Source: Candidatus Levyibacteriota bacterium (lineage in GTDB: Bacteria > Patescibacteriota > Microgenomatia > Levybacterales > GWA1-39-11). From it: a stretch of DNA of 64,000 bases. A program made the translations under genes and the position numbers. Positions 2,436 to 55,809 of the stretch are shown piece after piece; the first letter of the stretch is position 1, and the number at the start of each line of letters is the position of its first letter. The notes under the pieces were generated by a model. That model had not been told where the DNA came from. It did not search any database and was given only the letters and a program-made list of their open reading frames with translations. The stretch is from contig DAIQMY010000001.1 of the NCBI GenBank assembly GCA_036788695.1, positions 150,792 through 214,791 on the forward strand, in the 5' to 3' direction.

Positions 2436-4424
2436 TCATTCATTATTCACCTTGTTGTTATCTGTAACAGGAGACGTAATAGGCTGTTGTGTAATTGGTT
2501 GAGATGCCTGTGGAGTAGGTTTCATAGCGGGTTGCGTTAGAGGCGCTTCTGTAGGAGGAGCTTCCTGTTTTGCGTCTGCTTCTTTTATGAATTGTTCTGC
2601 TGCCTGCGTATTTGTTCGTTCTGCCTCATCCAAAATGTCTTGAGGTTTAGAGGTGACCAGTTGATACTCAAAGTTTGATGCCAAAAATTGAGCTGTTAAG
2701 TGGTTTTGCCCTGCAAAAAAAAGTCCCTCTCCAACCTGCGCTGTTAGCAGAAATTGCTTTTCACCTTCTGATAAGTTAAGGGTTGAGGCGAGCGTTTCTA
2801 CCTCAGATGAGTTTTGTTTTAACAGGACCTGCATAGAAGAATTAGATAAGATTGCCTTGCCATAGTCGGAAGACAGGAAATCTTCTATGTCTTGGGTAAG
2901 CGTTGTAACTCCCAGGTAATATTTTCGTGCTCGCTTTGCAATTCCTTGCAAGAATGCAGCAGAGTCAGGATTTTTCATAAGATACCATGCCTCATCTACT
3001 ATTAATATACGTTTTTTCAATTTAGTTCTTACTCTGTTCCAAATAAAATCTAATATTACCTGCATGGCGACTGGCCTAAGAGATTCTTCAAGCTGTTTTA
3101 TTGAAAAAACGGTAAGTTGATTTTTAACATCGTAGTTAGTCTGTGAGTTTAATAGTCCTGAGAACCCTCCTTTGATGTACTTTTCTAGTCTAAACGCAAG
3201 GTCCTTGGCATCTGTTTCTTCCATATTCAAAAGTGTTTTATATAAATCCTCAAGAATGGGTGGTTCATTGCCAAAAGTTGATGGGTCAGGGATTATCCCT
3301 TTTTGCTTGTAACACAAAACGAGCGCGCGGTCTAAAATTGCCTCCTGTGTTGGAGAGAATTCACCAAGCATAATCTTGAGAAGTGAGTGGAGGGATAAAA
3401 ACTTTATTCCAAGCTGCGCTTCTGATCTGTCATCTGAAAGAAGGGCAAACGGATTAATTTTTACCTCAGAGTCTTTTGAAAAAGATATGTATTCTCCATC
3501 GAGCGCATGGCAGAGTGCTTTATATTCATCCTCAGGATCTATGATGAGAATTTCTGTGTCAAACATCATTTGACGCAACACCTCAAGCTTAACTAGAAAT
3601 GATTTTCCAGAACCAGATTTCCCAAAGACAACAGAATTTGCATTCTCAAATGAGAAGCGATCCACAATGATAAGTGAATTATTTAGCGTGTTTACTCCAT
3701 AAAAAATACCGTTTGGTTGAGATATTTCATAGGATGTGAAGGGAAACGTTGAGGCAACGGATGTAGTATCCATGTTTCGGGTAATAAATAATTTATCCTC
3801 CCCCAGGGGGAGTGTTGTTTTAAATCCGTCCTCCATTTGAAGAGTAGCGGGTTTTATAACCAGCAAGTTTGAGGCAAGTAGGGAAGTGAGTTCATTCGTT
3901 TTCTTATCAAGTTCATCAACTGTTTTTGCTGAAAGTGTAACATAGAGTCCAAATTGAAAGAATCGTTCAAGTCCCCGCGCTAACTCTTCACGCAGGGCGA
4001 TCGCGTCCTCAAGGGATGCTCGAACCTTAGGATCAGGTTCTATGCCGTTTTTCATATCTGATTCAATCGTTGCTTCCATTTCTCCAATTTTGCGTTTCAA
4101 ATTGGAAAGAATATCCCGACTTTCAACTGGGTATATAAACATAGATACGTTCATGGTTTCCTTGTAGTCTATAAGTATAGAAAGCCAATTTGGAGAAACT
4201 TCGCGCGGATAGTCAATTACAATAAACGTTCGGTAGAAAGCGTCTCCTACGCGAATATATTTAAAATCTACCTCAACGGATGAGGGAGCAAGAAGATCTA
4301 TCAGAGACACAGACCCACTTTTTAATTTCCCAACATCGTGTGTGATTTGAGGTTGTGGTGCAGATTGAGCTGTTTGTGCAGGTGCACTTTTTTCTGTTTG
4401 TTTTTTCTTTCCTAGTCCTAGCAT
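2436..4424 (-). CDS. virB4: VirB4/TrbE/CagE-family T4SS ATPase, C-terminal ATPase portion (662 aa)
   Basis: Walker A VVFGKSGSGKSF and Walker B RILIVDEAWYL (the DEAW motif is typical of VirB4). N-terminal stretch LIDLLAPSSVEVDFKYIRVGD...YPREVSPNWLSIL resembles the VirB4 middle region. Own RBS AAAGGAG 9 nt upstream of ATG. Confidence 0.8.
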   Translation of the reverse strand: MLGLGKKKQTEKSAPAQTAQSAPQPQITHDVGKLKSGSVSLIDLLAPSSVEVDFKYIRVGDAFYRTFIVIDYPREVSPNWLSILIDYKETMNVSMFIYPVESRDILSNLKRKIGEMEATIESDMKNGIEPDPKVRASLEDAIALREELARGLERFFQFGLYVTLSAKTVDELDKKTNELTSLLASNLLVIKPATLQMEDGFKTTLPLGEDKLFITRNMDTTSVASTFPFTSYEISQPNGIFYGVNTLNNSLIIVDRFSFENANSVVFGKSGSGKSFLVKLEVLRQMMFDTEILIIDPEDEYKALCHALDGEYISFSKDSEVKINPFALLSDDRSEAQLGIKFLSLHSLLKIMLGEFSPTQEAILDRALVLCYKQKGIIPDPSTFGNEPPILEDLYKTLLNMEETDAKDLAFRLEKYIKGGFSGLLNSQTNYDVKNQLTVFSIKQLEESLRPVAMQVILDFIWNRVRTKLKKRILIVDEAWYLMKNPDSAAFLQGIAKRARKYYLGVTTLTQDIEDFLSSDYGKAILSNSSMQVLLKQNSSEVETLASTLNLSEGEKQFLLTAQVGEGLFFAGQNHLTAQFLASNFEYQLVTSKPQDILDEAERTNTQAAEQFIKEADAKQEAPPTEAPLTQPAMKPTPQASQPITQQPITSPVTDNNKVNNE

Positions 4425-4463
4425 GTTTTACAATAACTCCTTTTTGTCGTATGTAGCGTATTT

Positions 4464-5078
4464 CTACACAATAATATTTTTAACGTCACTTGTTGAAAAG
4501 TCCACATTCATGCTTGTCTGGTTGAAAAGTTCAAAAAATACTCGTCCTAACTCTTCAGCCTTAATGACTCTACTGGAAAGCCCTATTCGTTCAATTTGCG
4601 TCATAACATTTGTTCTCTTGCTAGCTATTGCATCCGCGGTGCGTGCTTCGTGCGTCTTTTTACTGCCTCCTGATGTTGGCCCTAGCTCGAGCGCATTAAA
4701 TGGGATTACCACATATGTTTTTTTATCTAGCAGCCCATCTTCTTTTATAAGTTCCTGGATGAAATCCTTGTAGAGCCTTAAGTGCTCAGCCACTCGTGCG
4801 TTTTGGGTAACGGTAATTTTGTGATCAAGAGATGAGACATATGATGAGAGATCAATTCTTTTGGAAACTATCACAATCTGGATTGCAAAAGAGAGAGAAT
4901 TTAAAAGCGACATATACCCATATATACGCGCGTTTTGTTCGTCTTGGGAAAGAAGAAAAAAGTTAACAGATGAAACTTCCAGGATAGAGCATGCATTTTT
5001 TCCTTTTAAAAATACCGTGTCATCCCGAATATCTTCGATCTCAATAAAGGATTGTGTTGTCGATTTAATTTTAGCCAT
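4464..5078 (-). CDS. Stand-alone VirB4 N-terminal (CagE_TrbE_VirB-like) domain protein, 204 aa
   Basis: IEIEDIRDDTVFLKGKNACSILEVSSVNFFLLSQDEQNARIYGYMSLLNSL resembles the N-terminal domain of Gram-positive VirB4 homologs (PrgJ/TcpF/TraE type). Sits directly upstream of the ATPase part on the same strand, separated by a TAG stop and a 39-nt spacer containing an RBS. Confidence 0.5.
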   Translation of the reverse strand: MAKIKSTTQSFIEIEDIRDDTVFLKGKNACSILEVSSVNFFLLSQDEQNARIYGYMSLLNSLSFAIQIVIVSKRIDLSSYVSSLDHKITVTQNARVAEHLRLYKDFIQELIKEDGLLDKKTYVVIPFNALELGPTSGGSKKTHEARTADAIASKRTNVMTQIERIGLSSRVIKAEELGRVFFELFNQTSMNVDFSTSDVKNIIV

Positions 5079-5086
5079 GGGCAGTT

Positions 5087-6154
5087 TTATAAAGTATTTT
5101 GTGCAACTCCAAACAATTCACGTCTTAATTTTTCGCGTTGGTCTACAGATATTACTTGAATAGGTTGAGCCACTGATCCATCAAGCGTTATTCTGGTATC
5201 TTGAAACTCTTGTTTTTTTAACGTGTCCTCAAGGTGCAGGGTATATGTTCCGCTTGGAAGTGGAGTTGCGGCTCTAAAAAAACCATTTGCGTCAGTTCGG
5301 AAGGTTCGGAGTGGAACGTTTTGCGTATCAAGCACTTCCACAATGATGTGGGGGAGCGGTTTTCCTCTTGGGTCAAGTATTTTGCCTTGTAAAATATTGG
5401 CTATGTCTATGCCTCCTACAGATACTTGAGAGGGTGCCACTGGAGGGGTTATCGGTTGCGTTTCAGCTACTGCATGAGGCGTAGGAGGAACAATTTGTGA
5501 TTGAGAAGCAGAAGATTCTGTTTGGCTTGTACTTTCCTGAACAGGAGGGACTGAAGTTTCCGTATGGGGAGCAGATAATTCCCCAGACGTTCCTTCTTGC
5601 GTGTGTATGGCAGAGGCTTGCGTTGTGGGAGTTTTTTCATCGGCCTTAATAACTCTATTCGTAAATCCGCCCTGCTGTGTTGTGCCATCTTTGAAGAGGT
5701 TGCTCACGTTTTCTACTTGAGACTTCTCATCAGCATCAGGCTTAAAATAAGAACTTGCAAGCTGATTAAAAAGTTTTGCTTTTTGTACTGCTGCGCTGTC
5801 TCCTGAATTTGAGTCAGTAACGTTAGTGTGCGACGGAGGGGTAAATGTAAAGTATGGCATTTGTACTCCGTGTTTTTTGTAAATATATTGATTTTCCGCG
5901 GGAATTGCCTTAAAGAAGTTAAAAAGCATCTTATCCATAGGTCTTCCATCAATAGGCACAAACGCAAGACAAAGCCCTACGCCTCCTGAGAGAAGCATAA
6001 AGGGAAGCTTTAGTAAAAACGGAATGGGGAAAAAATAGAACAAGAGTGCAAAAACCCCGCCACCTAAAAGATATAAAAATTGTTTTACCGTAACAGATCC
6101 TATAAGCCTAAATTTAAACCCTGTAACGTCTTGGGGGATAGGATGATTTTCCAT
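5087..6154 (-). CDS. VirB3/PrgI-like small T4SS membrane protein fused to a long Ser/Thr/Pro/Gln-rich linker and a C-terminal transthyretin/carboxypeptidase-regulatory-like beta-sandwich domain
   Basis: N-terminal FKFRLIGSVTVKQFLYLLGGGVFALLFYFFPIPFLLKLPFMLLSGGVGLCLAF gives two TM helices in the VirB3/PrgI arrangement. Position immediately upstream of VirB4 in the conserved VirB3-VirB4 order. C-terminal GKILDPRGKPLPHIIVEVLD...GTYTLHLEDTL resembles a prealbumin-like fold. Confidence 0.4.
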   Translation of the reverse strand: MENHPIPQDVTGFKFRLIGSVTVKQFLYLLGGGVFALLFYFFPIPFLLKLPFMLLSGGVGLCLAFVPIDGRPMDKMLFNFFKAIPAENQYIYKKHGVQMPYFTFTPPSHTNVTDSNSGDSAAVQKAKLFNQLASSYFKPDADEKSQVENVSNLFKDGTTQQGGFTNRVIKADEKTPTTQASAIHTQEGTSGELSAPHTETSVPPVQESTSQTESSASQSQIVPPTPHAVAETQPITPPVAPSQVSVGGIDIANILQGKILDPRGKPLPHIIVEVLDTQNVPLRTFRTDANGFFRAATPLPSGTYTLHLEDTLKKQEFQDTRITLDGSVAQPIQVISVDQREKLRRELFGVAQNTL

Positions 6155-6402
6155 ATATTAAAGGGTATAACGTGAAACATATGCTTTCAAGATTATCAAA
6201 ATAGGTCAAAAAAAAGACATTCTGTGCGTAACGTGAAAAGCGCTGTGCTTTCTTGACACGCGCTTATGTTTTGCCGTACCATAAATAAAGAGAATGTTGT
6301 AAGCAGTTTGTTATTTTGTAGTTAAGAAGAATAGTGAAAAGAAGCCTATAATGCGAGTAAGATAATGATAAAAGAAATACTTTCTAAAATTATTTCATAA
6401 CT

Positions 6403-6741
6403 ATGGAATTTACACCGGAAAAGAAAAAAACAGTAGAGAAAATGATAGTTGATTCAATGATAGACGCTGTAGGGGCAGGAATTGTTCCTGAAGAAGAGCT
6501 TACTAGTATCTCTGATTTTGTTTTAGCTCGAATAGATGCCATAAACAATGAAGATGAATTGGTTATTTTTCTTGTTGAACTTTCTCAAAAATGGTCATTT
6601 TTCTTACCGATTGAACGCTTCATTGAAGGTGAGGCGAAAGAGGCGGAAGATAAAAAGTCAGTAGATAAAGCAGAAAATCTTATAAAGGATGGACAAATAG
6701 ATCAAGCGCTGCAGGTTTTAAAGGCAGCAGAGGGAGCATGA
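6403..6741 (+). CDS. Small acidic hypothetical protein (112 aa), translationally coupled to the next gene
   Basis: ORF with ATG start; its stop overlaps the start of the 645-aa ORF (6741/6743). Highly acidic composition. Confidence 0.45.
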   Translation: MEFTPEKKKTVEKMIVDSMIDAVGAGIVPEEELTSISDFVLARIDAINNEDELVIFLVELSQKWSFFLPIERFIEGEAKEAEDKKSVDKAENLIKDGQIDQALQVLKAAEGA

Positions 6742-6742
6742 T

Positions 6743-8680
6743 ATGACAAAGAATATACAAACAGAGGCAGCAGCGCGTGCCATAACAAATAGAACAGAGC
6801 TAACTCCGGCTGAGCAGCAAGATAAACAAAAACAGCTCGCAGCAGGTGCTGCAAAAAGAAGTCTTGAAAAAAGACGTGAGGCCCTGGGTGGAGACGACCA
6901 TGGCTTTATGGAGGGAATGAGGAGTACAAAAAAAGAGACACTTGATGTGCCAACCGCAGATGATGCAGAGAAGGTAATTGAATCAGCCGCCAATACTCCT
7001 GAACAAAAAAGCGAAGCAAAAAAAATAGACGCAGTTTTGCGAGCAGTATTCTCAGGAGATAAAGCCTATCTTGAGGAACATCAGAATGCAACAAGTGACT
7101 CGTTAATTGCTCCTATTCGTGAAATGATGAGAAGGGACCCTGCCTTCAAAGAACTAGCAGATGCGATTGACAATAGTCCTGCTTCTTTCAATGAATGGGT
7201 TCAATTTGTGGCAGAGCAGTTAGATTCGGGGCGTAATCCAGGGGATAACAGGTTTGTGGACAATCTTCAGGCAAAGTATAAATCGTTTATGGAGAAGGAC
7301 AGAGAGGAATCGGGGGATAAGACGGCAATTCGAAGAAAGCTTGATATGCAAAAAGCAAAAGAAGACGCGCTAAACGATCAGTATCAGGCAAATATAAAAG
7401 AAGTTGAAGAAAATCGAGCACGAAAAGAATCTTTTTCTGATATGGATAACGGTGCGGGAAAAGAATTAAAGGAGATAACTGATACGGTTGCTAGTGAGGC
7501 TGAAGATCGGAAGCGGATAGAGGAGGAGATTGCGGAATTAAGAGTTGATAAAGCAAGAGTAGATGAAGATGCGCATAGCACTAATTTGTCAATAAGAAGA
7601 GAAGCCGAGCAAACACTGCGTCGATTGAGGACGAATATTTCTGATAAAGAAAAAGAGCTTGCCCCATTTAAAAAAAATATTGTTAAAAAAGAATCATTGA
7701 CTTCTGAAATGAAAGGATTAAATAATACGCACGAAAAACTTTTGCAAGATCAAGGAAGTCTTGCAACTCAAATTGAAACGATTCGTGAGGAGCGAACAAA
7801 GATAGAGAAACAATTAAATATCGGAGGCGGTAAGGATAAGGAGGACTTCGTAGGGGACCTGCGAGCTATTATGGGTGATGCTTTTCGGGACACTATGATT
7901 GCCAGATTTGATGCACAGCAGGCAGGCGTTAGTGAATCCTTTAAGGAGCTTATTGCGGAAGCACGCGATCCTCACGTTAAGGCAGCACTGGAGCAGCTGC
8001 AAGATAGTCATAATCGTTGGAAGGATTGGGATTCGGTCTGGAAAACAAAGCTGAAGGTTCCTTATGGTCGCAAGGAAGAGCCAAGTATGCAAAAGGATCT
8101 TATGAAGGAAGATGTAGACATTTTGCTTAAAGAGGGTCCTGAGAGTTTTATGAGAAGATTTCTTAGCCACAAGATGGATCCGGATACGAAAAACGCAGGT
8201 AATCCTCAGGGAATGATGTACTCTAAAGAAAAGATAGACGAACTCATTTCAGATAAAGACTTTATGGCTGCGGTACAGCCAAAGGCTGCCGGGTTATTAG
8301 TTCGCCAGGCAGTACAGACAAACGTATTGTCTGAGCGTCAAATGGCTGAGTTGAGAGATACAGAATGGGGAATGAGTGCGATTGAAAGTGCGCTGATGTT
8401 GGATAAGACTGCAGTTGAGAGCGGTAGAGCGCATCAGGCAATAGACTACATAAAGAAGCATCCAAAATTTGCGTGGTGGATGCTTCTTACGTTTTTATGG
8501 CCACCAGCAGGATTATTCGTTGCGGGAGTATACGCAGGTAAAGAGGTTGTGTCTGGAGTATTTCCGGGTAAAAATAAAGAGCATGCCGGAGGGCATGATA
8601 AAAAGCCTGTGAATGTTGAGCCTCCTCCATCACCTCACAATGAGCAGCAGTTTGCGCCTAGCCTCGCACCTGCGCATTAA
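6743..8680 (+). CDS. Large charged coiled-coil protein (645 aa) with a hydrophobic segment near the C-terminus (HPKFAWWMLLTFLWPPAGLFVAGVYAG); unknown function
   Basis: Long ORF with K/E/R/D/Q-rich, helical-looking sequence and a C-terminal TM helix. No recognisable catalytic motif. Confidence 0.55.
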   Translation: MTKNIQTEAAARAITNRTELTPAEQQDKQKQLAAGAAKRSLEKRREALGGDDHGFMEGMRSTKKETLDVPTADDAEKVIESAANTPEQKSEAKKIDAVLRAVFSGDKAYLEEHQNATSDSLIAPIREMMRRDPAFKELADAIDNSPASFNEWVQFVAEQLDSGRNPGDNRFVDNLQAKYKSFMEKDREESGDKTAIRRKLDMQKAKEDALNDQYQANIKEVEENRARKESFSDMDNGAGKELKEITDTVASEAEDRKRIEEEIAELRVDKARVDEDAHSTNLSIRREAEQTLRRLRTNISDKEKELAPFKKNIVKKESLTSEMKGLNNTHEKLLQDQGSLATQIETIREERTKIEKQLNIGGGKDKEDFVGDLRAIMGDAFRDTMIARFDAQQAGVSESFKELIAEARDPHVKAALEQLQDSHNRWKDWDSVWKTKLKVPYGRKEEPSMQKDLMKEDVDILLKEGPESFMRRFLSHKMDPDTKNAGNPQGMMYSKEKIDELISDKDFMAAVQPKAAGLLVRQAVQTNVLSERQMAELRDTEWGMSAIESALMLDKTAVESGRAHQAIDYIKKHPKFAWWMLLTFLWPPAGLFVAGVYAGKEVVSGVFPGKNKEHAGGHDKKPVNVEPPPSPHNEQQFAPSLAPAH

Positions 8681-8699
8681 GGAAAAGTGGGAAGTATGA

Positions 8700-9056
8700 T
8701 TAGAGTTTCTCTTCTGTTTTCGGAGGACTTGTGAGTTGGTTTAAGTCAACGCCCGTGAATTGAGACAAAAGGTTTATCATGACAAATGACATCATGATAA
8801 TAACTAGCCCAATAATTGCATAGGTAAGTCTTTTTCTGGCATTGTCCACTTTTTCTTTATCCCCTGAAGACGTTACATATTGGTAGCCTGAGTAAATGAT
8901 AAGAAATACGGCAACTACGCCGGATAGGACTAGTGCTGCATTAATTACATTTTGTAAGACAATCCATATGCAGGATATGGTAGCTACTCCTGTTGCATCT
9001 GGAATTCCCTCCAATGGTCTTACACATTCTCCCCAATCTTCTGTGAATAAATCCAT
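8700..9056 (-). CDS. T4SS pilin-like small membrane protein (VirB2/TrbC-type, T4SS_pilin family), paralog 3
   Basis: Two hydrophobic helices flanking the loop YVTSSGDKEKVDNARKRLTYAIIGLVII. The same architecture and motif recur in three neighbouring genes. Confidence 0.6.
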   Translation of the reverse strand: MDLFTEDWGECVRPLEGIPDATGVATISCIWIVLQNVINAALVLSGVVAVFLIIYSGYQYVTSSGDKEKVDNARKRLTYAIIGLVIIMMSFVMINLLSQFTGVDLNQLTSPPKTEEKL

Positions 9057-9121
9057 GTGCTATTAGCATAAAACAAATGTGAAAGATAATTCAAGAGGAA
9101 AGGTGTAAGTAGGCACCGTAC

Positions 9122-9577
9122 TTATTGGCTAGTATTCCGAAGTGTAGGTATTTCAAACCCAGAAGTAAGGTAATTACCGGTAAAGATGTAAAGGACTGCG
9201 TTTATGATAACGTAGGCTAATATAACTATGATAAGTCCTACAATTGCTGCAACTATTGTAGAGCGTGCAGTATCAATTTTTCCTTTATCTCCGCCTGAAA
9301 GAATCCATCGAACGCCTCCATACAAAAGGAAAATAAGGGATAAAACAATTCCGATAATTATAATAGCGTTTATAATAAAAGCAATCAGTTGATTTGGTGA
9401 CACGTCAATATTCCCGATTGATTTAGGTGACTTAATTATTATAGGTTCAATATTCTGAGCAAATGCAGGGGTCGCTAGAACGGACATAAGAAGTGAGCCA
9501 AATGATACTGAGGCGGTATTTATTATTTTTTGCAAACTCATATGATTAATTAGAACATGTTTTTTTTTGCATGTCAA
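9122..9577 (-). CDS. T4SS pilin-like small membrane protein, paralog 2, with an N-terminal Sec-type signal peptide
   Basis: Core IFLLYGGVRWILSGGDKGKIDTARSTIVAAIVGLIIVIL. The track start at 9577 is TTG. An in-frame ATG at 9541 gives MSLQKIINTASVSFGSLLMSVLATPAFA-QN, a classic signal peptide. Confidence 0.6.
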   Translation of the reverse strand: MTCKKKHVLINHMSLQKIINTASVSFGSLLMSVLATPAFAQNIEPIIIKSPKSIGNIDVSPNQLIAFIINAIIIIGIVLSLIFLLYGGVRWILSGGDKGKIDTARSTIVAAIVGLIIVILAYVIINAVLYIFTGNYLTSGFEIPTLRNTSQ

Positions 9578-9583
9578 TAAGCG

Positions 9584-9913
9584 TTATTGTTTTCCTATGT
9601 CTTGTAGGACTTGCGCGCCCAGGAGTAAGCCCACAATTCTTACAATGATAAAGGATAGGAGGATAATAATAAGCCCTACTATTGCGTACGTGATAGTGCG
9701 TCTTGCGCGGTCCAGTTTTGCCTTATCTCCTTGAGACGTAATCCATAAAACTCCCGCGTATAAAAGAAAAATAAGAGACGCAATAATGCCTATGGTAACG
9801 AACAGTCCTAATCCGAAGTTAATAATATCAGATGGGGCGTTTGCGCCTGATGGGATATTTTCAGGTGTTTGCACGTCTCCATATCCGGGTATTTTTAAAG
9901 ATAAGTATTTCAT
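9584..9913 (-). CDS. T4SS pilin-like small membrane protein, paralog 1
   Basis: Core IFLLYAGVLWITSQGDKAKLDRARRTITYAIVGLIIILL. Its ATG directly abuts the stop of the upstream pilin-like frame (TAATATG). Confidence 0.6.
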   Translation of the reverse strand: MKYLSLKIPGYGDVQTPENIPSGANAPSDIINFGLGLFVTIGIIASLIFLLYAGVLWITSQGDKAKLDRARRTITYAIVGLIIILLSFIIVRIVGLLLGAQVLQDIGKQ

Positions 9914-9914
9914 A

Positions 9915-10401
9915 TTATTGAAAGCCTGGTATTCGCAAAATGTTTATACCTATAAACTCAAGTATCGCAATTGAGAGAATAATAAATATTAGTCCAGTGA
10001 TTGCTGCGGTTATTTGTTCCCGTGCTTGACCCACTTTTTCTTTGTTTCCCGCAGATGTCATGATGGTATATCCTGCGCGGATAAAGAAAAGGAGAGCTGC
10101 AACTCCTCCGATTGAGAGTACTATGGTAAAAATATCACGTACAAAAAATTGAGGCTCTGTGCTGATCTTTATTCCAAGTGCTGTTGGAATTTTTTTGCAA
10201 TACCCAGTTGTCTGATCTATATCTTGCTTATCGCAAAGCGCTCGGGGTTGAGACCATGGAATTGCAACTCCTAACTCTTTGCCATATGGATCTTTTATTG
10301 CTGTGCCTATTGTTCCTGTTTCTCCGCCGCTTGCTATTGTAAGCGGAATAAAGTAGTAGGTGAAATCGTTTTGTTCGCAGGTAAAAGTGTTTCCATTTTT
10401 T
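9915..10401 (-). CDS. Fourth T4SS pilin-like domain in an open frame of ~160 codons that lacks any ATG/GTG/TTG start; likely the C-terminal domain of a fusion with the upstream secreted protein via a -1 shift at an A8 tract, or else a pseudogene
   Basis: Manual translation of the minus strand gives ...KKIPTALGIKISTEPQFFVRDIFTIVLSIGGVAALLFFIRAGYTIMTSAGNKEKVGQAREQITAAITGLIFIILSIAILEFIGINILRIPGFQ*, which matches the pilin paralogs. The frame stays open upstream to a TAA at about 10423 and overlaps the last 20 codons of the 419-aa ORF in the -1 frame. The only in-frame Met lies inside the TM helix. Confidence 0.45.
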
Positions 10402-11557
10402 TTAAGTCCCGGCCGTCTTTAATTTTAAGAAGATATTTTCCTTCTGTAAGGGTTCCAAATACATATCCGTCGGCATCTTTTGATTCTGAACTGAGGAACA
10501 TATCTATCTCTCCTGTTCCATCTTCGGGTTTGGGGTTTGCGTTTACAACTAAGCATCTAGGCGCACTCTTGTAATCATTATCCAACCCTTCAACCTGTAG
10601 CCAATAATCATTATAAATATTTGAGTCCTTGCCTGATTTTATGTTTCTACCTTTTAAAATAATGGGTAGGGTGAATCCATTTTTTGTACTATTTGTATTT
10701 AGATTTGTGACAGTTTCCGCTTTTGGCTTTATAATCTCAGGGTAAAAGTGAGTTACGTAAAATACCGCATCCGCCTTTACATCATCAGGGCTTACGCTTT
10801 TACTATCTTTCCCCTGCGATAAATATACATGGTATGTTTTTCCTGCGTGAAACCAATCTCCAGAAGTGAACTGATTCGTTTCAGTACAGTCTTCTTTAAG
10901 TGTTTTTTCTCCATCCCCACACAACTTGCTTAGTATAACTATTCCGTCTCTTGGTTGCGCTTCTTGCCAGTCATCCTCCCCACAATCTTGAGGTTTACTT
11001 TTGAGGCAGTAGAAATATTTTGCGTTTTTAGTAGGATTGGAAAGATTAATAAATCGAACAGAAATATAAGGAACGCTTTCATCTATAAATGCTTGATTCG
11101 TTTTTGGATTTTTTGGAAGTCCTCTTGTTGCGCCCAGTCCCTTACAGATATAGTAAGATTCAGTAGTAATGCAGTCACTCAGGTTTGGATTATTAACTTC
11201 ATCTAAAAATCTGTCTTCGTCAGTTTTTCCCTCCTCGTTTGCACATGTACTTTCTGTAAAAAGAGTTGAATCATCAATTGTAATGGTAGATGTTCCTAAA
11301 GGTTTTTGTATTTTGCGATTTTGTGCCGGAATATCAAAGTACCTGCATAAATTTGTGCAGATATTGTCATCAGGGGGGACAAATGAGATGTCCTTTAAGG
11401 GCACTTCTTTCCCTTTAATAGTTTTAGTTACCAATTTTTGGGAAGAACATTCGCTTAGGTCTTGTCCGCTGAATTGAACACCCGTGGCGTATGTTGTAGC
11501 TGTTGTGAAAATTAAAAATAAGAAGAAGACAGGCAATAGCAGGAAAGTTTTCTTCAT
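10334..11557 (-). CDS. Secreted Cys-rich protein (about 407 aa from the internal ATG; the track ORF starts at a TTG at 11593); candidate pilus-associated adhesin
   Basis: Signal peptide MKKTFLLLPVFFLFLIFTTATTYATG. Numerous Cys residues suggest disulfide-rich extracellular domains. The 3' end contains the A8 tract (plus-strand T run 10396-10403) where a -1 shift joins the downstream pilin frame. Confidence 0.55.
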   Translation of the reverse strand: MKKTFLLLPVFFLFLIFTTATTYATGVQFSGQDLSECSSQKLVTKTIKGKEVPLKDISFVPPDDNICTNLCRYFDIPAQNRKIQKPLGTSTITIDDSTLFTESTCANEEGKTDEDRFLDEVNNPNLSDCITTESYYICKGLGATRGLPKNPKTNQAFIDESVPYISVRFINLSNPTKNAKYFYCLKSKPQDCGEDDWQEAQPRDGIVILSKLCGDGEKTLKEDCTETNQFTSGDWFHAGKTYHVYLSQGKDSKSVSPDDVKADAVFYVTHFYPEIIKPKAETVTNLNTNSTKNGFTLPIILKGRNIKSGKDSNIYNDYWLQVEGLDNDYKSAPRCLVVNANPKPEDGTGEIDMFLSSESKDADGYVFGTLTEGKYLLKIKDGRDLKKMETLLPANKTISPTTLFRLQ

Positions 11558-11598
11558 ATAACTATCATAGGAGGTTTTTTGCTCTAAAGTCAAGAAAT

Positions 11599-12930
11599 TT
11601 ATGGAAGAAAGCGGTATCCTCTACCTTTTATAGTAGTAAGATGTGTCGGGTTGTTTGGGTCTTCTTCAATCTTTCGTCTGACTCTGTATATGATTTGATC
11701 AAGTGCTTGGTCGGTCACGCCCTCACGTGTCTTTTCATCTGACCATACAGACTCTATTATTTCCTCTTTTGTACACACCTTATCAGTGTTTTGAATTAAA
11801 AACCGTAACAGTTTAAATTCTGATGGTGAGAGTATATCCGTTAGCGACTCGTTCCCTGCTTTTATTTCTTGAGTATCTGTGTCAAATGTTATTTTCTCAG
11901 TTGCGGGGTGTGGAAAGTGGGACAGATTTTTTTCAAATAAAGGAATTTGAATTTCTCCGTTCTGAACAAGATAAGAGTATTGCAGAAAAGAATCTTTTGG
12001 AGTATCTTTTGGGGATTTGAGAAGTATTTTTTGCTCAATTGGTATAAGCGAATTCCATATTTCAGTCAAAGCTCCTTGAATTGCAGCTTTTGAAAGTAAA
12101 AAAGTTGCCATATCCGCGTGCTTTCCCTCTTGAGCAAGCACAGTTTCAAGGGCTATTCTGGATAATTTTCCATGTCCCCCTGTAAGTTTTATAATTTCTT
12201 TGTGCGTTGCAGGACTAACCGTTCTTCCGCTCGTTTTCTCAAGATAGGCAAAGCGGAAAGCATTCGCCTCAGCGTCACAAAGGGGAAGGAAAACGTGGTT
12301 TCCTACGACAAATTCATAGAAATCCCCGTATATGCTAGGTTCCAATAACTCCTCAAGCGGTCGTTCTAGGGAGAAAACGCAAGAAAATCTATATTTTGCC
12401 CTATTTCGTAAAACATGCAAATCTGTAAAAAAAGAAGAACTTATCTGTGGGAAATAGGTGTCAAATCTATCAAAGAGAAGAACTACGGTTAGCTCCCGCT
12501 CTATAGACAAATAGTCTATGGCACGTTTTAACGCCTGAAAAAGTATTAATTCATCCTGAAAAGAAATCGCCTCCTTGAGAATGTTGTTTACCGCCTCTTG
12601 TTCTTCCTCCATCTTCCGTTCTGAAAAAGAGTAGGAAAGGGAGATAAGAATAAATTTTATTAGTTCGTAAAAATTTCTTCCCTTAATCTCTGATAGATCC
12701 ATATAGACAAAGTGGTACCATTTATAGTTTTCTCCTAGGTGAAGAACGCGCAAGGGATTATTGTAGGCTAAAAGCCGCAAGACGTTTGAACGACCAACTC
12801 CAGGAAGGCCGACAACTTGCGCGGAGTTTCCCTTTTGAACGTATGAGAGAATTTTATCTATCTCATGTGTCCTGGAGGATGGAGGATAAAGAGAGTCAAA
12901 ATGCATGGGTTCTGAGGCTAAAGTAGTCAT
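11599..12930 (-). CDS. Putative transcriptional regulator: N-terminal P-loop NTPase-like domain (AAA/STAND-like) plus C-terminal OmpR/PhoB-type winged-helix DNA-binding domain
   Basis: P-loop-like VVGLPGVGRSNVL. C-terminus TKEEIIESVWSDEKTREGVTDQALDQIIYRVRRKIEEDPNNPTHLTTIKGRGYRF matches the trans_reg_C winged-helix signature (W...V.V.I.RLR.K...........I.TV.G.GYR). Confidence 0.55.
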   Translation of the reverse strand: MTTLASEPMHFDSLYPPSSRTHEIDKILSYVQKGNSAQVVGLPGVGRSNVLRLLAYNNPLRVLHLGENYKWYHFVYMDLSEIKGRNFYELIKFILISLSYSFSERKMEEEQEAVNNILKEAISFQDELILFQALKRAIDYLSIERELTVVLLFDRFDTYFPQISSSFFTDLHVLRNRAKYRFSCVFSLERPLEELLEPSIYGDFYEFVVGNHVFLPLCDAEANAFRFAYLEKTSGRTVSPATHKEIIKLTGGHGKLSRIALETVLAQEGKHADMATFLLSKAAIQGALTEIWNSLIPIEQKILLKSPKDTPKDSFLQYSYLVQNGEIQIPLFEKNLSHFPHPATEKITFDTDTQEIKAGNESLTDILSPSEFKLLRFLIQNTDKVCTKEEIIESVWSDEKTREGVTDQALDQIIYRVRRKIEEDPNNPTHLTTIKGRGYRFLP

Positions 12931-13003
12931 ATGTTAGTTAATTGTAAGCTTCTTATAAGGATAATATCAAGTTTGAAGGTGCATCTTCCCCTATACTTGC
13001 CTC

Positions 13004-16000
13004 ATGAATGAAAGATTTTTGCCACAAGAATTGACAGCAGGAAGGGTATCTTCTACACTTAATGTAAGGAGTACTATGCCAGAGCCACAAAAAGAAGAAC
13101 CTATTGTTCTCAAAAAAAATGAAGTGCATCCTCCCAGGATAAGTAATTCTCCACGACCAGAATCAATACAAGAGCTTATGCAAAGTCAGGCAGAACGTGA
13201 GGCGGCACGAGCCATAATGGAAGAGGCTCGGAAGCAAGGAAAAACATTATCTGAGGATGAAAAAAAAATGATTCTTGCTTCAGGAATTAAATTTCCTATT
13301 TTTGGAGGCGCTGATGTGCCAGAAAATGATTCTTATAATCCAGACAGTGAAGACAGTGAAGAAAACCAGGGCGGAGAGGTTATAAGAAGGGGTTTTGAGC
13401 TGCGACCCCCACGTGATCACGCCCATAACCCGCAACTCCTTGATGAGATAGAAAAATTTAATAGGGTAGCTGAGTTGGGTGTTGATTTTGATGATCTCAA
13501 ACGCGAGGCAGATAAAATCATGAATCTTCAGTCGTTAGACCCAAACAATCCGATTACATCTGAGCAAAGACAAGACCTTATAAGACAGCTTTCTAAGAAA
13601 GGACAAGAGATTGCGGAAGCAAGAATGAATAATCCAGACAGGTTTGGTTTTTACCTTGAAACCCAAGACTTACGAGAATTGGATGATGATCCTATAGCAT
13701 GGCTAGATTCTCAATTTGGTCAAATATACAATTTGTCTAGATTGGGGAATGAGTTAGATTCTCCCGCTTTGCAGCGTGCGCAGACAGAAGTACAAGAAGC
13801 ATCTGCATATCTCCTGAAGAGATTTGGAAAATTCAGAAAAGAGGGGATTAAAAATGCCAAAGACGTTGATCAGGCAAATCAGGATAGTAAGTTGTTGTTG
13901 GAATTTAATGAAACATTTATGATCAGGTTAAACCTCATTTTTGCCAGAACAGCAATTGATCAAAGAAATATGGAGCAAATACAGGGCGCAGTTGGAAGAC
14001 TAAGAACTTTAGGTTTTGCCGGAGCCCAAGCTTTTGACAATGGAGCAGTTGGTGCTATGTATAACCGTATGGAGGCGATGCTTGGGAATTTGCGGCTTGC
14101 AGAAGGTGGGCGTGAGCATCACCTTAATCCTATGTCTTTAAACAAGTTGCAGGAAAGAACTATAGACGAGCAGATAAAACTTGCAAAAGAAGGCGTAGGT
14201 ATATTTGCCGATAGATATAAGGATATCCTGTTGGATCCAAAGAAACGGTTGAATGCTGATGACGTATTAAAACGCGAGATAATCAGGTCTGTTAGAACAG
14301 CATACGATATTTTAGTTGTATCCCAGAGAGTAGCAATAGTTGCCGCTCGCGGTAATTATAGAGGAGACAGGCAGCAGTACTTCTCTGATAATGGTGGTGC
14401 TTTTGCTGTATTTAACTTGGAACAAATGACTATTAATAAGTGGGACCTATTAAATCATGAGGAGCAGGAGTTCTTTGATTTTCTCAAGCTTGACATGGCT
14501 ATTAATAATAAAAAAGGAGTAGATGTATCCGGGTTGACGCGTGAACAATTATTAGACTTAGGAGGAAGGCTATTTAGGGATCTGTATGTAGTTCCTGATT
14601 TTTATTCATCATCCTGGAGAATGAATGGAATGAGGGATCAGTTGGGGAGGGTAATTCAGTATAGGGCTGAAAACGACAAAATGATTGAGAAGTTGATAGA
14701 AGATCCTAATTTTACTCCCGCTGATGAAAGACTAGTGGAGTTGCAACGGCAAATGAGGGCAGACAAAGAAAGTTATATGAAGGCATGGGATGAGCGTAAT
14801 CCTTCAAATAGAATATTGCCGGGAGATCGCGAAATTGCGCAAAGACAATTTTCCCGCCAAATGTTTGAGAAAGTCTTAACCCGTGACCAAAGAGAGCTAT
14901 GCCTGAGAGTTCTGACACCGGACGACATGATGGATGTTATAAATGTTGCAATAAAAAAAGCCGGTACGCAGTTAGGAAAAGAGGTTGGAGACTTTGCTCT
15001 GTTTGTACAGTTGAAGCAAAGTTTGGGACATTTAGGACATCGCTCTGGATCACCGGAAGATATACGTAAAGAGACACGTAACTACAGGACTGAAGTTTGG
15101 GAAAAGATTCAAAAATTTAAAACAGAGGATGTTATACAGTTGATAAGAGGTCGGGCACGACCAGATATATACACGGAAGACTACAATAACTTGCGTGAGT
15201 TATATACGCTTTTTGAGAAAAATGATCCAGAATTGGGAGTACTAACTAATGAGCAGAAAGAATTGCAAAAAACGGGGGGCATAGAAGCATTTCATACATA
15301 TGATAGGTTTATTGAGAAATACGGTTCAGTAATTCAGGCAGTACGTCAAGACGCAATGCGAAACAGCTTAACTGGTCCAGAGCAGGTAGATATGACCAAT
15401 CTAAACCCTCGACAGATTGAAATGGTTAACAGAATGCTAGGGAATGGAGCAGCGGTTACTCTCCAAAATATCTATAAGGACATGAACAAATTTATAAATC
15501 GTCACGGTATTGTCAAGGAACTTGTGACAAGCCATAAGTACATAGATCTTTACAATAGAGTAATAAACGTAGAGGATGTAATGCTTGACACATTAGAATC
15601 AATACCTGAAAACGCGAGCTTCCAGAAGTTATCAGATTATTTCACTGCAGAGTCAGGAGCAGATGCCTTAAAACGAAACTTTAATGATATAGGAAATGCG
15701 GTGAATGCAGGGAACGCATTTATTAAATTTATCACAACTGAAGACAAGGAAGGAAGATTTAAAGAATCCAAAGTTATGAAAGGCGCTGTGGAGGCGTATA
15801 ATGGTCGCGGAAACGGTGCTGAAGTTATGCGATTTACCTATGGAACAGAATTATTATATTCTCTGCAGTACTATTGGGTTAATATGTTGCGTTTAGGTGC
15901 ACTTCCGTTAAGAAAGCCAACCTCAGTGAAGCAGGAGCATTATGGAATTGGAGCAAAATCCTTAACCAGAGAAGATGTCCGTGGAGATTTGGATCATCAC

Positions 16001-16195
16001 AAAACAGAATTTGTAGGACGAGGAGCAGATGCTGATCAGTGGTTTGTCCAATTAGAGGAGCTAACAGGGACAGATATGGAATCTACAATGAAGAGAAATG
16101 CGCTAACACTTCTGATATATGCGTTCTTGGGGATAGTGGTAGGAGCGCCGGTTGGGGCTGCGGCAGCAGCACTGGCAGGAGCGCAGAAAGGATAA
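13004..16195 (+). CDS. Very large hypothetical protein (1063 aa), charged and mostly helical, with an extreme C-terminal hydrophobic tail (LLIYAFLGIVVGAPVGAAAAALAGA); unknown function
   Basis: Uninterrupted 3.2 kb ORF with ATG start, divergent from the regulator gene. No recognisable enzymatic motif. Confidence 0.55.
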   Translation: MNERFLPQELTAGRVSSTLNVRSTMPEPQKEEPIVLKKNEVHPPRISNSPRPESIQELMQSQAEREAARAIMEEARKQGKTLSEDEKKMILASGIKFPIFGGADVPENDSYNPDSEDSEENQGGEVIRRGFELRPPRDHAHNPQLLDEIEKFNRVAELGVDFDDLKREADKIMNLQSLDPNNPITSEQRQDLIRQLSKKGQEIAEARMNNPDRFGFYLETQDLRELDDDPIAWLDSQFGQIYNLSRLGNELDSPALQRAQTEVQEASAYLLKRFGKFRKEGIKNAKDVDQANQDSKLLLEFNETFMIRLNLIFARTAIDQRNMEQIQGAVGRLRTLGFAGAQAFDNGAVGAMYNRMEAMLGNLRLAEGGREHHLNPMSLNKLQERTIDEQIKLAKEGVGIFADRYKDILLDPKKRLNADDVLKREIIRSVRTAYDILVVSQRVAIVAARGNYRGDRQQYFSDNGGAFAVFNLEQMTINKWDLLNHEEQEFFDFLKLDMAINNKKGVDVSGLTREQLLDLGGRLFRDLYVVPDFYSSSWRMNGMRDQLGRVIQYRAENDKMIEKLIEDPNFTPADERLVELQRQMRADKESYMKAWDERNPSNRILPGDREIAQRQFSRQMFEKVLTRDQRELCLRVLTPDDMMDVINVAIKKAGTQLGKEVGDFALFVQLKQSLGHLGHRSGSPEDIRKETRNYRTEVWEKIQKFKTEDVIQLIRGRARPDIYTEDYNNLRELYTLFEKNDPELGVLTNEQKELQKTGGIEAFHTYDRFIEKYGSVIQAVRQDAMRNSLTGPEQVDMTNLNPRQIEMVNRMLGNGAAVTLQNIYKDMNKFINRHGIVKELVTSHKYIDLYNRVINVEDVMLDTLESIPENASFQKLSDYFTAESGADALKRNFNDIGNAVNAGNAFIKFITTEDKEGRFKESKVMKGAVEAYNGRGNGAEVMRFTYGTELLYSLQYYWVNMLRLGALPLRKPTSVKQEHYGIGAKSLTREDVRGDLDHHKTEFVGRGADADQWFVQLEELTGTDMESTMKRNALTLLIYAFLGIVVGAPVGAAAAALAGAQKG

Positions 16196-16207
16196 AACAT
16201 AAAAATT

Positions 16208-17932
16208 TTATCTTCCAAGCATTCCTTTAAAGAATTTTTTCGCTCCTCCAATAGCTTCAGGTGTGGTTGATCCGGCTTTATATTCTGCCTTTGCTCCAAA
16301 CGCCATTTCTTTGACACCACTAATACCTTTTCCTCCTACTGCCTGGGAAGCGCCAAAGGATGTCCTAATATCTTTTAGTCCAAAGTCCATAGCGCCAACT
16401 GCCTTTCGGGTTCTATCAAGTATACTTGGCATGGATATGATAAAGCCAAAGCCTATAAATGCCGCTATAGCAGGACTTCCGCCGACCGCGTCACCTATAA
16501 GCGGAGGAGAGAAGAGCCCACCTTGACTTCCTACGTTGCTCATAATTGTTTTCCCAAGTAATATTACGCCAAACGCCATAGGAAAAACTGATAAATGGCC
16601 CATGAGATGCCGTATCCAACTAGAAAATCCTAATTTACTTCCCGGAAATATTCCAGCAGTTATCCAGAGGGGAGCAACTATTACATCTATGAGAACATAG
16701 ATAAAAGATTTTATAAGCGTAAACCATACGCGGAACAATGAGAATATAATAGCAATGAGTATTATTAAAAATGTAACAATAGTAAAAAGGCTGATAATCG
16801 CTGCCCTGAAGAACGATTCAACAAAATTACACCCTCCTCCCGCAAACAACCCTCCTATGGGCGTATCCCTTAGCCATCCTCCCAATCCTGGCACATATCC
16901 CAATGCTCCTACGCCCGCTGTGACCCCAATTTTCCCTAGATCTACGACTCCACACCCAATAGAGCTGACGGCATTAAAGGGGGTGAAGAAGACCTGGAAA
17001 AAAGATGAGATGGTAGACTCTAAAAAGTCTATTGAGATATTTCCTAAAACCTTGCTAATGCCCCAGGAAGTTTGCCCGGCGATCCCTATAATTCCGGGAA
17101 TATGATTTATACCGCTCAGATTTGGTGTGTCTATACTAAATGATTTGTTTACTACGCCAAATACGGTAGAGGAGGTGCTAACATTTGTTGGTATAAGACT
17201 ATTAAATGTTAGAATAACAAGATAAAGGGTCACATACATAAAATCTATAAGAAGTCCGGCGATTGCGTAAGAAAAAGTGACTAAAATAAGCGCTATTATC
17301 ATTTTGGGGATTTGGTTTTGAATACTCATAACCGTACGTGCATCAATTTTTACCCTGAACATAATTGCAAGTCCCACAATAGTAAACCCTAAAACAAAGG
17401 CGAGGTATGCAATATCTCTAAATCGTGCCCATATTCCAACAAGCGGTCGTAACCTGTCAAATCCTACTCCGTTTTCTTTAGGGTCATTCTCTGCGTAAGC
17501 GCTGCGTGCTACGCCAAAGTTTCCTGCCATATATGCTGCGTAGTCCACTCCGGATACTGGTAGAGTAAAGGTTTCACCTATAAGTCTTCCCATGACCTGT
17601 GTTGCTCCTCCTCCTTGGGCCTCATATCCTATTTGTCCACTTTTTAGATCTACCCCCAAACAGGTTTTTTTTGGGTCTAGAGGGTTATATCCTGAAAGCA
17701 CGCAGACTGTGCTTGCTAGTGTATTGATGAGTGTCGCTTGAGTAAGCGTATTAAGATTTTGAGGAACTTGAGGGTTAACATTTCCATACAGCATTTGATT
17801 ATTCATTGTTGCGACAGTTGGATAGGTAGTTGCAGAAGGAGTAATTATGGGTGCTTGAGCAAGAATGGGTTTTATACTGCTTGCAATAAGAAAGAAGACA
17901 AGAACGTACAGAATATGTTTTAGTTTTCTCAT
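16208..17932 (-). CDS. Polytopic membrane protein, VirB6/TrbL-like candidate, with a signal peptide and an N-terminal extracytoplasmic domain followed by at least six TM helices
   Basis: Internal ATG at 17932 gives signal peptide MRKLKHILYVLVFFLIASSIKPILAQA (the track start at 17977 is TTG). Multiple long hydrophobic helices and Gly-rich loops, and its position in a T4SS-like island. Family assignment is by architecture and context only. Confidence 0.4.
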   Translation of the reverse strand: MRKLKHILYVLVFFLIASSIKPILAQAPIITPSATTYPTVATMNNQMLYGNVNPQVPQNLNTLTQATLINTLASTVCVLSGYNPLDPKKTCLGVDLKSGQIGYEAQGGGATQVMGRLIGETFTLPVSGVDYAAYMAGNFGVARSAYAENDPKENGVGFDRLRPLVGIWARFRDIAYLAFVLGFTIVGLAIMFRVKIDARTVMSIQNQIPKMIIALILVTFSYAIAGLLIDFMYVTLYLVILTFNSLIPTNVSTSSTVFGVVNKSFSIDTPNLSGINHIPGIIGIAGQTSWGISKVLGNISIDFLESTISSFFQVFFTPFNAVSSIGCGVVDLGKIGVTAGVGALGYVPGLGGWLRDTPIGGLFAGGGCNFVESFFRAAIISLFTIVTFLIILIAIIFSLFRVWFTLIKSFIYVLIDVIVAPLWITAGIFPGSKLGFSSWIRHLMGHLSVFPMAFGVILLGKTIMSNVGSQGGLFSPPLIGDAVGGSPAIAAFIGFGFIISMPSILDRTRKAVGAMDFGLKDIRTSFGASQAVGGKGISGVKEMAFGAKAEYKAGSTTPEAIGGAKKFFKGMLGR

Positions 17933-18029
17933 AGGGCAGGTAGTTTTAGTATGGCTCAAAAAGCAACAAAAAGTCAAGGAATATATAAGTAGGGGTTTTT
18001 ATTGACAACTATATATAAAACAGGGTATC

Positions 18030-54438: not shown

Positions 54439-55809
54439 TTATAGTATAAGCAACAATATAGATCCTGACACTATAAAAAGAATTGAGATGGATGTCAAGA
54501 AAATGCTTTGACTGACGCTTCCCGTTGGTGGCAGGGGCGGAGGAGAAGTAGGTGTTATTGCAGTTGCTGTCGGGATAGGGGTCTGTGTAGGGGCTAGGGT
54601 TGGGGTAGAGGACGATGTAGGAGTAGGAGTCGTTGTAAGGTTAATAGTAGGAAGGGCCGTGACGGTTGGTGTGGGTGCTAGTACTTGGGTAGGGGTAGGC
54701 TTTGCGGATGGTGTCGCGTCTTCAGCAATTTGTGAGCCAGATGCAAGAATTGTGAAGGAGCTTGCGACAGTTTTTGTTGCGCCGTTTGCGTCAGCAGCTT
54801 GTAGCTTTATTGTATATGCCCCTTGTGTCAGTGAAACAGCAGGTCTATACGCCCAGTTTCCATTTGGATCAGTTCTTACTTGTACATTTATTAAATCAGG
54901 TTCTGTAGATAGTGCTATAAGCGAATTTGGGAATGCAGTACCTTTGAATTGAGGCTTCTCATCAGTATATGTTTGACCATTTCTAGGTGAAATAATTAGA
55001 ATTTGTGCAGTTTTTTTACCAGTAGGGATTGCAAGAAGGCTTGATTGTGAGCTGAGGTTTTCCTCATCAGTACTAGCAATAAATGAATAGTTGCTAGATA
55101 AGGTAATCGTGGGTATCTCTGTGGATGGGGAATATGTGTATAGTATGTCAGATGTAAGATCCCCTTTTTTTGCGGAGAGGGAAATATGTGTATTAGGCAC
55201 GAGTGTTAGTATTTGGTCATGAGAAGTATTTCGTATAAGGTATGTTGGTATAGAATATTTTCCTTCAGAATTTGTAACAGCAGATATTGGGGCAGCATTC
55301 GGTATTTTAATATCTAATAAAACATCATTTGCGTTTTCGCCATTAGGTAAAATAACTTTTCCTGAAAGTGCATACGTGTTTCCTGAAGAAGGAGCATCTC
55401 CGTCAGCAGTTGTCGTGGTATAGAAGGTTCCATTATCCGTATACTCGTCCCCATTTGACAGGAGTGTGAATTTATATTGTGTATTTGGTTTCAGATTTGT
55501 AACTGTTATGAAATGGTTTATATATGATTGATTTCCCTGAGCGTCTCTGACATCAAATACAACAGAAGGAGAATCCGGATTATTGATTTGTACTGCTGAT
55601 AAGGTGGGGTCAAGCGTTGTAAAAGTTACAGTAAATGAACTATTTGTGATGTTTGATATGGACACGTTTTGTGGTTTTTCGTTAGGAGTTGCTTGGCTTG
55701 ATTTGAACACTCCAATTTGTACTAAAAATGCAGTTACAAAAAGTCCAGAAATAAGTATTATGAATGCAAAAACTGTAGGAATTCTTTTCTGGAATAAGTT
55801 TTTTTTCAT
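54439..55809 (-). CDS. Cell-surface protein with FN3/Ig-like domains, a Pro/Thr-rich stalk and a C-terminal LPPTG motif followed by a hydrophobic segment
   Basis: Signal peptide. FTVTFTTLDPT and other beta-sandwich-like segments. A long PT-repeat. C-terminal PPLPPTGSVSQSIFLTSISILFIVSGSILLLIL. Confidence 0.5.
   Translation of the reverse strand: MKKNLFQKRIPTVFAFIILISGLFVTAFLVQIGVFKSSQATPNEKPQNVSISNITNSSFTVTFTTLDPTLSAVQINNPDSPSVVFDVRDAQGNQSYINHFITVTNLKPNTQYKFTLLSNGDEYTDNGTFYTTTTADGDAPSSGNTYALSGKVILPNGENANDVLLDIKIPNAAPISAVTNSEGKYSIPTYLIRNTSHDQILTLVPNTHISLSAKKGDLTSDILYTYSPSTEIPTITLSSNYSFIASTDEENLSSQSSLLAIPTGKKTAQILIISPRNGQTYTDEKPQFKGTAFPNSLIALSTEPDLINVQVRTDPNGNWAYRPAVSLTQGAYTIKLQAADANGATKTVASSFTILASGSQIAEDATPSAKPTPTQVLAPTPTVTALPTINLTTTPTPTSSSTPTLAPTQTPIPTATAITPTSPPPLPPTGSVSQSIFLTSISILFIVSGSILLLIL

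Follow-up and report, generated by a model that had tools for sequence, protein, structure and literature searches.

Tandem arrays of VirB2-like pilin genes have been described in the type IV secretion systems (T4SS) of Patescibacteria. In the Saccharibacterium S. epibionticum, a series of predicted pilins belongs to the T4SS and is essential (Wang et al. 2023, PMC10633639). Using the Pfam model that is also applied here, Quinonero-Coronel et al. 2025 (PMC12102498) recorded 441 arrays of 2–11 VirB2-like genes in Patescibacteria; these are especially frequent in Microgenomatia and Saccharimonadia, and identity averages 25% with a maximum of 54%. A 2025 review (PMC12857230) discusses a possible pilus, and PrgF has been described as a VirB2-like protein of the pilus in a Gram-positive T4SS (ter Beek et al. 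2025 preprint, bioRxiv 10.64898/2025.12.18.695078). The present analysis concerns an array at positions 8700–11557, on the minus strand of a 64,000-nucleotide (nt) stretch of Candidatus Levyibacteriota bacterium contig DAIQMY010000001.1, hereafter the window. The tandem array itself is of the kind already described (PMC10633639, PMC12102498). Like the Patescibacterial VirB2-like arrays of PMC12102498, it consists of tandem PF18895 proteins of low mutual identity beside virB4, prgI/virB3 and trsD, is chromosomal, and resides in a Patescibacteria host of a lineage, Microgenomatia, where such arrays are common. Unlike the published arrays, it is a fixed four-member set headed by a 547-amino acid (aa) ectodomain-pilin fusion, which is frameshifted in this assembly. 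In a limited literature check, no description of an ectodomain-pilin fusion heading an array was found in the main texts on Patescibacterial T4SS. We consider it likely that 8700–11557 is the pilin operon of a chromosomal, monoderm-type (MPF-FATA-like) T4SS of ultrasmall, Levybacteria-like Patescibacteria (Microgenomatia), encoding four differentiated VirB2-like subunits in fixed order. The array has the following parts.

8700–9056, minus strand: short pilin of 118 aa, group g4, last gene of the array (PF18895 45.9 bits; AlphaFold2 hairpin; orthologs in 8 loci)
9122–9541, minus strand: short pilin of 139 aa, group g3 (PF18895 30.0 bits; same 139-aa call in the identical public contig)
9584–9913, minus strand: short pilin of 109 aa, group g2 (PF18895 28.1 bits; orthologs in 8 loci)
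9915–10418, minus strand: start-less open frame with linker and C-terminal pilin module, about residues 396–547 of the long pilin, "paralog 4" of the initial annotation (translation; PF18895 36.3 bits; 100% match to the C-terminus of database protein P0001)
10396–10403, minus strand: frameshift site, a run of eight A (A8; comparison with a public contig; a -1 shift restores the 547-aa frame)
10334–11557, minus strand: codons 1–395 of the long pilin, ending at the shift near 10396 (open reading frame list, homologs, AlphaFold2)

All four modules scored above the 26.6-bit gathering cut-off of PF18895 (T4SS_pilin), the value of 30.0 bits referring to the frame 9122–9577, and matches to the same model are precomputed on all database homologs. 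In an alignment of the four, the loop between two hydrophobic helices reads S-x-G-x-K-x-K-x3-A-R, with S, G, K, K, A and R invariant. The initial annotation, made from the sequence alone, had singled out a shared loop S/T-x-G-D/N-K-x-K-x-x-x-A-R; the alignment bears this out, and among the 253 open reading frames (ORFs) of at least 45 aa in the window, the four pilin modules and no others contain [ST].G[DN]K.K...AR. Loop net charge is +1 to +3. The hidden Markov model search that the annotation had proposed as a check on the pilin assignment thus came out in its favor. Its counter-hypothesis, generic two-transmembrane proteins such as holins, found no footing: a PHROGs scan of the pilins at E up to 0.01 returned no phage or holin family match, and the neighbors are T4SS and housekeeping genes. 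Because of the PF18895 matches, the loop motif unique to these modules and the lack of phage or holin matches, the pilin label holds, and the four modules belong by sequence to the T4SS_pilin family. Among homologs and loci that carry a name, the nearest are metagenome-assembled genomes (MAGs) of Candidatus Levybacteria or Levyibacteriota.

Structures were predicted with AlphaFold2 from an alignment of database homologs. The 118-aa pilin was modeled as a hairpin of helices 28–62 and 67–101 with a predicted local distance difference test (pLDDT) score of about 90. In the long pilin, residues 130–420 were beta-rich (pLDDT 80–95) and helices were placed at 469–501 and 506–535, with the head disordered or unmodelled. 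Taken with hydropathy and loop charge, the models give two hydrophobic helices joined by a short charged loop, as in VirB2/TrbC pilins. A Foldseek search of the 118-aa model against the PDB gave nothing at E <1.

Four consecutive minus-strand pilin genes had been annotated initially. Four PF18895 modules are indeed present, but only three are stand-alone proteins (118, 139 and 109 aa); the fourth forms the C-terminal end of a 547-aa fusion. The independent gene placed at 9915–10423 does not stand, and the array in fact extends over 8700–11557. Traced upstream, the reading frame of the fourth module stays open as far as 10418 and holds no ATG, GTG or TTG ahead of a Met at 10061, which leaves a residual ORF of 48 aa (9915–10061). 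An upstream ORF in another frame, of 419 or 407 aa (10334–11593 or 10334–11557), overlaps it, and a -1 shift at the A8 run 10396–10403 joins both frames into a 547-aa protein. The intact protein is on record as P0001; it differs from the conceptual -1 fusion at one residue (Arg in P0001, Lys in the fusion), the search reporting 100%. All 18 long-pilin homologs (38–87% identity, 397–626 aa) end in a PF18895 module, and the residues immediately after the shift, C-E-x-N-D-F-T-Y-Y-x-I-P-F-T-I, are conserved in the -1 frame of the homolog alignment.

That the fourth module might instead be a small gene of its own with a non-canonical start, for example ATT at about 10253 behind AGGAG, is hardly credible. 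AGGAG-N5-ATT does lie in frame and would yield a 113-aa product, near the other small pilins in size. Against this, the 18 homologs and the otherwise identical public contig all read through from the ectodomain, and the residues ahead of the ATT are conserved as protein. Homolog read-through likewise ruled out the two alternative starts that were considered, an ATA overlapping the TAG and the ATT after AGGAG.

From its N-terminus, the long pilin consists of a putative signal peptide (MKKTFLLLPVFFLFLIFTTATTYA), a head of variable sequence, a beta-sandwich ectodomain that is rich in Cys and presumably in disulfides, a linker and a C-terminal pilin hairpin. The ectodomain has eight invariant Cys, which would fit an extracellular location. 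Mean pairwise identity rises along the protein, from 21% in the head (residues 25–125) through 39% in the ectodomain to 76% in the pilin module. A HMMER scan with the long-pilin module matched 10,898 clusters (50% identity) at E <=1e-3. Among the best 150 of these, at least 139 have a length of no less than 200 aa, and in almost all of them the module forms the C-terminal end; judged by sequence, the class of long ectodomain-pilins is widespread.

Two further observations concern module sequences. A 30-nt segment at 10299–10328, minus strand, has 77% DNA identity to the loop-coding sequence of paralog 2 (GGETGTIGTA versus GGDKGKIDTA). It was considered as a fifth loop copy and rejected: it sits in the conserved long-pilin linker I-G-x-G-x-x-P-G-x-I-G-x-x-I-K-D-P with no helix ahead, and was taken as chance or linker; the likeness may be chance or the relic of an old module. 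Elsewhere, a Cys-rich C-terminal extension past the pilin module (..CRAGGGFCDPQFCTAGNPIGSCGAGVICC..) occurs in a g2-type small pilin (locus L003, 9353–9829) and in the long pilin P0016, and resembles a small disulfide knot appended to the outer face.

The three stand-alone pilins differ from one another in their termini. The 118-aa pilin has no signal peptide, an acidic N-tail with a net charge of -5 and two conserved Cys (C11 and C29); among its 53 database homologs, one is a "pilin" by NCBI name. The 139-aa pilin, paralog 2, carries a putative Sec-type leader, MSLQKIINTASVSFGSLLMSVLATPAFA/Q (..ATPAFA/Q), whose AFA or FAD end is conserved in g3 orthologs; an alternative TTG start at 9577 would lengthen it to 151 aa (9122–9577). 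The 109-aa pilin has no signal peptide and a conserved N-terminus, MKYLSLxIPGYG. Its ATG lies 1 nt past the stop of the long pilin, the spacing to the upstream gene is 1–9 nt in 8 loci, and its translation would be coupled to that of the long pilin. Putative Sec-type leaders are confined to the 139-aa and 547-aa proteins, and orthologs keep this pattern. The differing N-termini and the leader of paralog 2 agree with the initial annotation, but the 30-residue C-terminal extension it gave to paralog 2 does not: the tail beyond helix 2 is 19 residues, against 17, 11 and 7 in the others. Full-length identity among the four paralogs is 24–30%.

The array was compared across eight loci (L001–L004 and L006–L009), and the same four genes in the same order were found in all eight of these Levybacteria-type loci. 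Position 1 is a long pilin of 456–642 aa (363 aa in L007, where the contig ends within the gene). Position 2 is a leaderless protein of about 109 aa with the MKYLSLxIPGYG start, which in one locus reaches 158 aa with a Cys-rich C-terminal extension. Position 3 is a protein of 137–156 aa with a putative Sec leader, and position 4 a leaderless protein of 109–124 aa with two conserved Cys. Core identity is 58–72% within a position and 28–42% between positions. More distant arrays of Microgenomatia type hold 6–8 pilins; their first one or two genes are again long and leader-bearing, with modules scoring 82–111 bits against the long-pilin profile, and a long ectodomain-pilin came first in every Microgenomatia-type array examined. 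The MAGs of loci L002, L003, L005–L011 and L015 are titled "uncultured Gammaproteobacteria bacterium"; these titles look mislabelled, gene content and closest relatives being those of Levybacteria/Microgenomatia.

These comparisons bear on whether the paralogs form a diversification cassette, that is, interchangeable variants of one pilin serving antigenic variation or access to more hosts, a reading put forward for the VirB2 arrays of Bartonella and Anaplasma. Low identity among the paralogs (24–30% full-length, as above) would suit such a cassette, as would array sizes that differ between lineages from 2 to 8 or more, and diversification has been suggested for Patescibacteria (PMC12102498). 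Each position, however, is an orthogroup of its own with group-specific leader, cysteines and length in 8 loci; the pilin modules themselves are the most conserved parts; and neither near-identical copies nor recombination-type repeats were found in the array DNA. We therefore regard a cassette as unlikely. The antigenic diversification entertained in the initial annotation finds no support, each paralog being conserved between species; its other suggestion, major and minor subunits, fits four orthogroups that keep order, leaders and cysteines in 8 loci. Because a fixed set of four groups is conserved, the sequences point to four specialized, differentiated subunits with a division of labor rather than to antigenic variation cassettes.

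In the window, the gene for the long pilin is interrupted. One G is lost, creating the A8 run: the public contig reads TTAAGAAAAAATGG where the window reads TTAAAAAAAATGG. That contig, NODE_17 of ENA ERZ794922, is identical to window positions 3915–17557 (13.6 kb) but for this one base and 100% identical over 21206–43638 (22.4 kb), so that the missing G is the sole difference in 36 kb. The long-pilin frame of the window ends early, after 12 out-of-frame codons, at a TAG (10336–10334). The gene is intact in all four contigs on record that carry it, and in L001, the contig read, a G interrupts the A run. At the shift site orthologs have A runs of only 3–6, and every ortholog is uninterrupted. 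None of the frameshifted products (407, 419 and 48 aa) turned up when databases were queried for them, and an exact-pattern scan of JGI metagenomes for either shift-site allele gave 0 matches.

The missing G is about equally likely to be an assembly or consensus error and a real loss-of-function or hypomorphic allele. Should the deletion be real, the gene in its present form would produce a secreted 407-aa ectodomain lacking an anchor, and the fourth pilin would be missing; translation of the 109-aa pilin, whose ATG is 1 nt past the long-gene stop, would probably be uncoupled as well. The heptamer A_AAA_AAA might permit some -1 rescue, and the A8 allele might represent a genuine "off" state of the long pilin, leaky or phase-variable.

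A functional split, whether by programmed -1 ribosomal frameshifting, transcriptional slippage at A_AAA_AAA or a phase-variable switch, is very improbable. Such A runs are known slippage sites, and the deletion makes an A8 run whose zero-frame heptamer A_AAA_AAA coincides with the very point at which a -1 shift would restore the protein. Yet the four contigs on record and all orthologs are uninterrupted, the ortholog A runs are short, the frameshifted products are absent from the records, and a singleton change is explained equally well by an assembly or consensus error. A conserved programmed frameshift is excluded, because orthologs have no long A run at the site and the split frames are likewise not conserved.

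The genes around the array supply its T4SS context.

2436–4424, minus strand: VirB4-like ATPase, 4.3 kb from the array, syntenic in related loci
4464–5078, minus strand: TrsD/TraC-like protein, syntenic in related loci
5087–6154, minus strand: PrgI/VirB3-like protein with CarboxypepD_reg domain, syntenic in related loci
6743–8680, plus strand: coiled-coil protein of 645 aa with hydrophobic C-terminus, no family match, flanking the array
11599–12930, minus strand: AAA-type NTPase with OmpR/PhoB-type winged helix (Trans_reg_C), 443 aa, directly upstream of the array, position kept in 9 loci
13004–16195, plus strand: 1063-aa protein with one C-terminal transmembrane (TM) segment, no family match, flanking the array
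16208–17977, minus strand: 589-aa protein with 7 predicted TM segments (hydropathy scan), adjoining the array in 10 loci
31206–33638, minus strand: VirD4-like coupling protein (TraG-D_C, TrwB_AAD_bind, DUF8128), 21 kb from the rest of the T4SS
54439–55809: Big_13/fn3 surface protein of 456 aa, adjoining PilO/PilN-like genes
55815–57322, minus strand: PilO- and PilN-like genes, belonging to a type IV pilus system distinct from the T4SS, beside the surface protein

In Levybacteria-type MAGs the synteny order is 7-TM protein, 1063-aa protein, regulator, array, coiled-coil protein, PrgI-like, TrsD-like and VirB4-like protein. The 1063-aa and 645-aa proteins are syntenic in the closest loci and diverge fast (23–35% identity in more distant loci), and a 112-aa protein on the other strand also lies in the cluster. 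The 443-aa AAA/winged-helix protein is probably the regulator of the array. The 589-aa 7-TM protein has no Pfam or NCBIfam match and is a candidate VirB6/PrgH-like platform by position and hydropathy; a VirB6/PrgH-like component is reported to be "scarce" in Microgenomatia. No relaxase was seen among the window ORFs scanned. The remaining genes are housekeeping genes (NrdR, RNR, SmpB, UvrD, TIM, MurJ) and type IV pilus assembly genes, and the window is therefore chromosomal.

Promoter-like sites were noted on the minus strand at 11593–11564 (TTGACT-18-TATGAT), ahead of the long-pilin ATG, and at 12970–12941 (TTGATA-18-TACAAT), ahead of the regulator ATG. Both end 7–11 nt before their ATGs, a spacing that suggests very short or no leaders on the two transcripts. 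The promoter/terminator scan of the array was otherwise uninformative.

How such an array might work can be sketched by analogy with VirB2-type pilins and PrgF. The hairpins would insert in the membrane with both termini outside and the K/K/R loop on the cytoplasmic side; for the two leaderless pilins a YidC-type route, like that of ATP synthase subunit c, is probable. Pilins extracted from the membrane by the VirB4-like ATPase would stack on a VirB6-like platform (candidate: the 589-aa 7-TM protein) and form a tube, with the conserved loop lining its lumen. As a host-contact subunit, the long pilin would display its ectodomain outside, at the tip or base. Pilus formation by these proteins is inferred from this analogy.

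Several results weigh against a pilin operon of this type. PF04956 (VirB2/TrbC) gave a best score of 14.7 bits (E 0.036), below its cut-off of 27.9. The Mbov_0395 pilin-like conjugal transfer protein model NF045849 gave 37.1 bits for the 118-aa pilin and 27.4 and 24.1 bits for others, below its cut-off of 40 and so indicating similarity only. A PDB sequence profile search with 18 pilin modules found no pilin, the only match being a spurious one to SLC13 (E 0.088). No pilus has been seen in any Patescibacterium, and papers call a pilus a possibility.

Some of these points could favor the absence of an extended pilus, the modules serving instead as two-helix membrane anchors or building part of the T4SS channel, either a short stalk or a hetero-oligomeric ring in the membrane, with the module of the long protein tethering its ectodomain. 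The hairpin fold does not discriminate between these roles, no pilus has been observed, and the preponderance of long proteins with a C-terminal module among the best 150 relatives would suit a tether. Nine of these 150 matches carry 3–8 pilin modules in one polypeptide. In P0084 (552 aa, 6 modules) and P0171 (820 aa, 8 modules), tandem T4SS_pilin hairpins each have a loop T-S/A-G-G-N/D-E-E; such polypeptides are awkward for, and hard to reconcile with, a simple helical polymer of one subunit. Opposed to this are the family-level similarity to pilin-like conjugation proteins, a basic loop as strictly conserved as the lumen-lining loops of solved conjugative pili, the essential pilin series of S. 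epibionticum (PMC10633639), and PrgF, a comparable Gram-positive hairpin that acts as a pilus or channel subunit (bioRxiv 10.64898/2025.12.18.695078). On balance we find an array of pure anchors or ring subunits doubtful and favor the pilin operon.

Comparison with other conjugative pilins sharpens the position of the array. Unlike VirB2/TrbC/TraA of diderm T4SS and the archaeal conjugative pilins (PDB 8dfu), to which no significant sequence match was found, two of the four proteins are leaderless, the host is monoderm, and there is no sign of cyclisation or bound lipid. Features are shared with PrgF of pCF10, with VirB2-like proteins of Gram-positive conjugative plasmids and with Mbov_0395 of the Mycoplasma integrative and conjugative element, hairpins of monoderm T4SS in which the charged loop is essential; NF045849, the Mbov_0395 model, is the nearest NCBIfam model, albeit below cut-off. 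Gram-positive plasmids usually have one functional copy, and none has been reported with a large ectodomain, whereas here a set of four is conserved. In the Trw system of Bartonella (trwL/trwJ) pilin genes are amplified in tandem, but the paralogs of the present array are ancient and differentiated rather than recent copies. Host contact, the role proposed for the long pilin, is also that of VirB5-type tip proteins; there is no relation in sequence or fold, and in the long pilin the putative adhesive domain and a VirB2-like module form a single polypeptide. As a tentative proposal, possible rather than probable, the long pilin may be the host-recognition subunit of the Patescibacterial T4SS pilus, combining a VirB5-like function with a VirB2-like module, its hypervariable head setting host specificity and its invariant hairpin plugging into the machine.

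For annotation, the "fourth pilin" is to be merged with the upstream ORF. In the sole Patescibacterium tested genetically, the T4SS and its pilin series are essential for epibiotic life. A fixed set of four subunits together with one tip-variable surface domain speaks for a heteromeric structure in which one subunit is dedicated to contact, more than for antigenic variation, and singles out the long pilin as the candidate for host binding.

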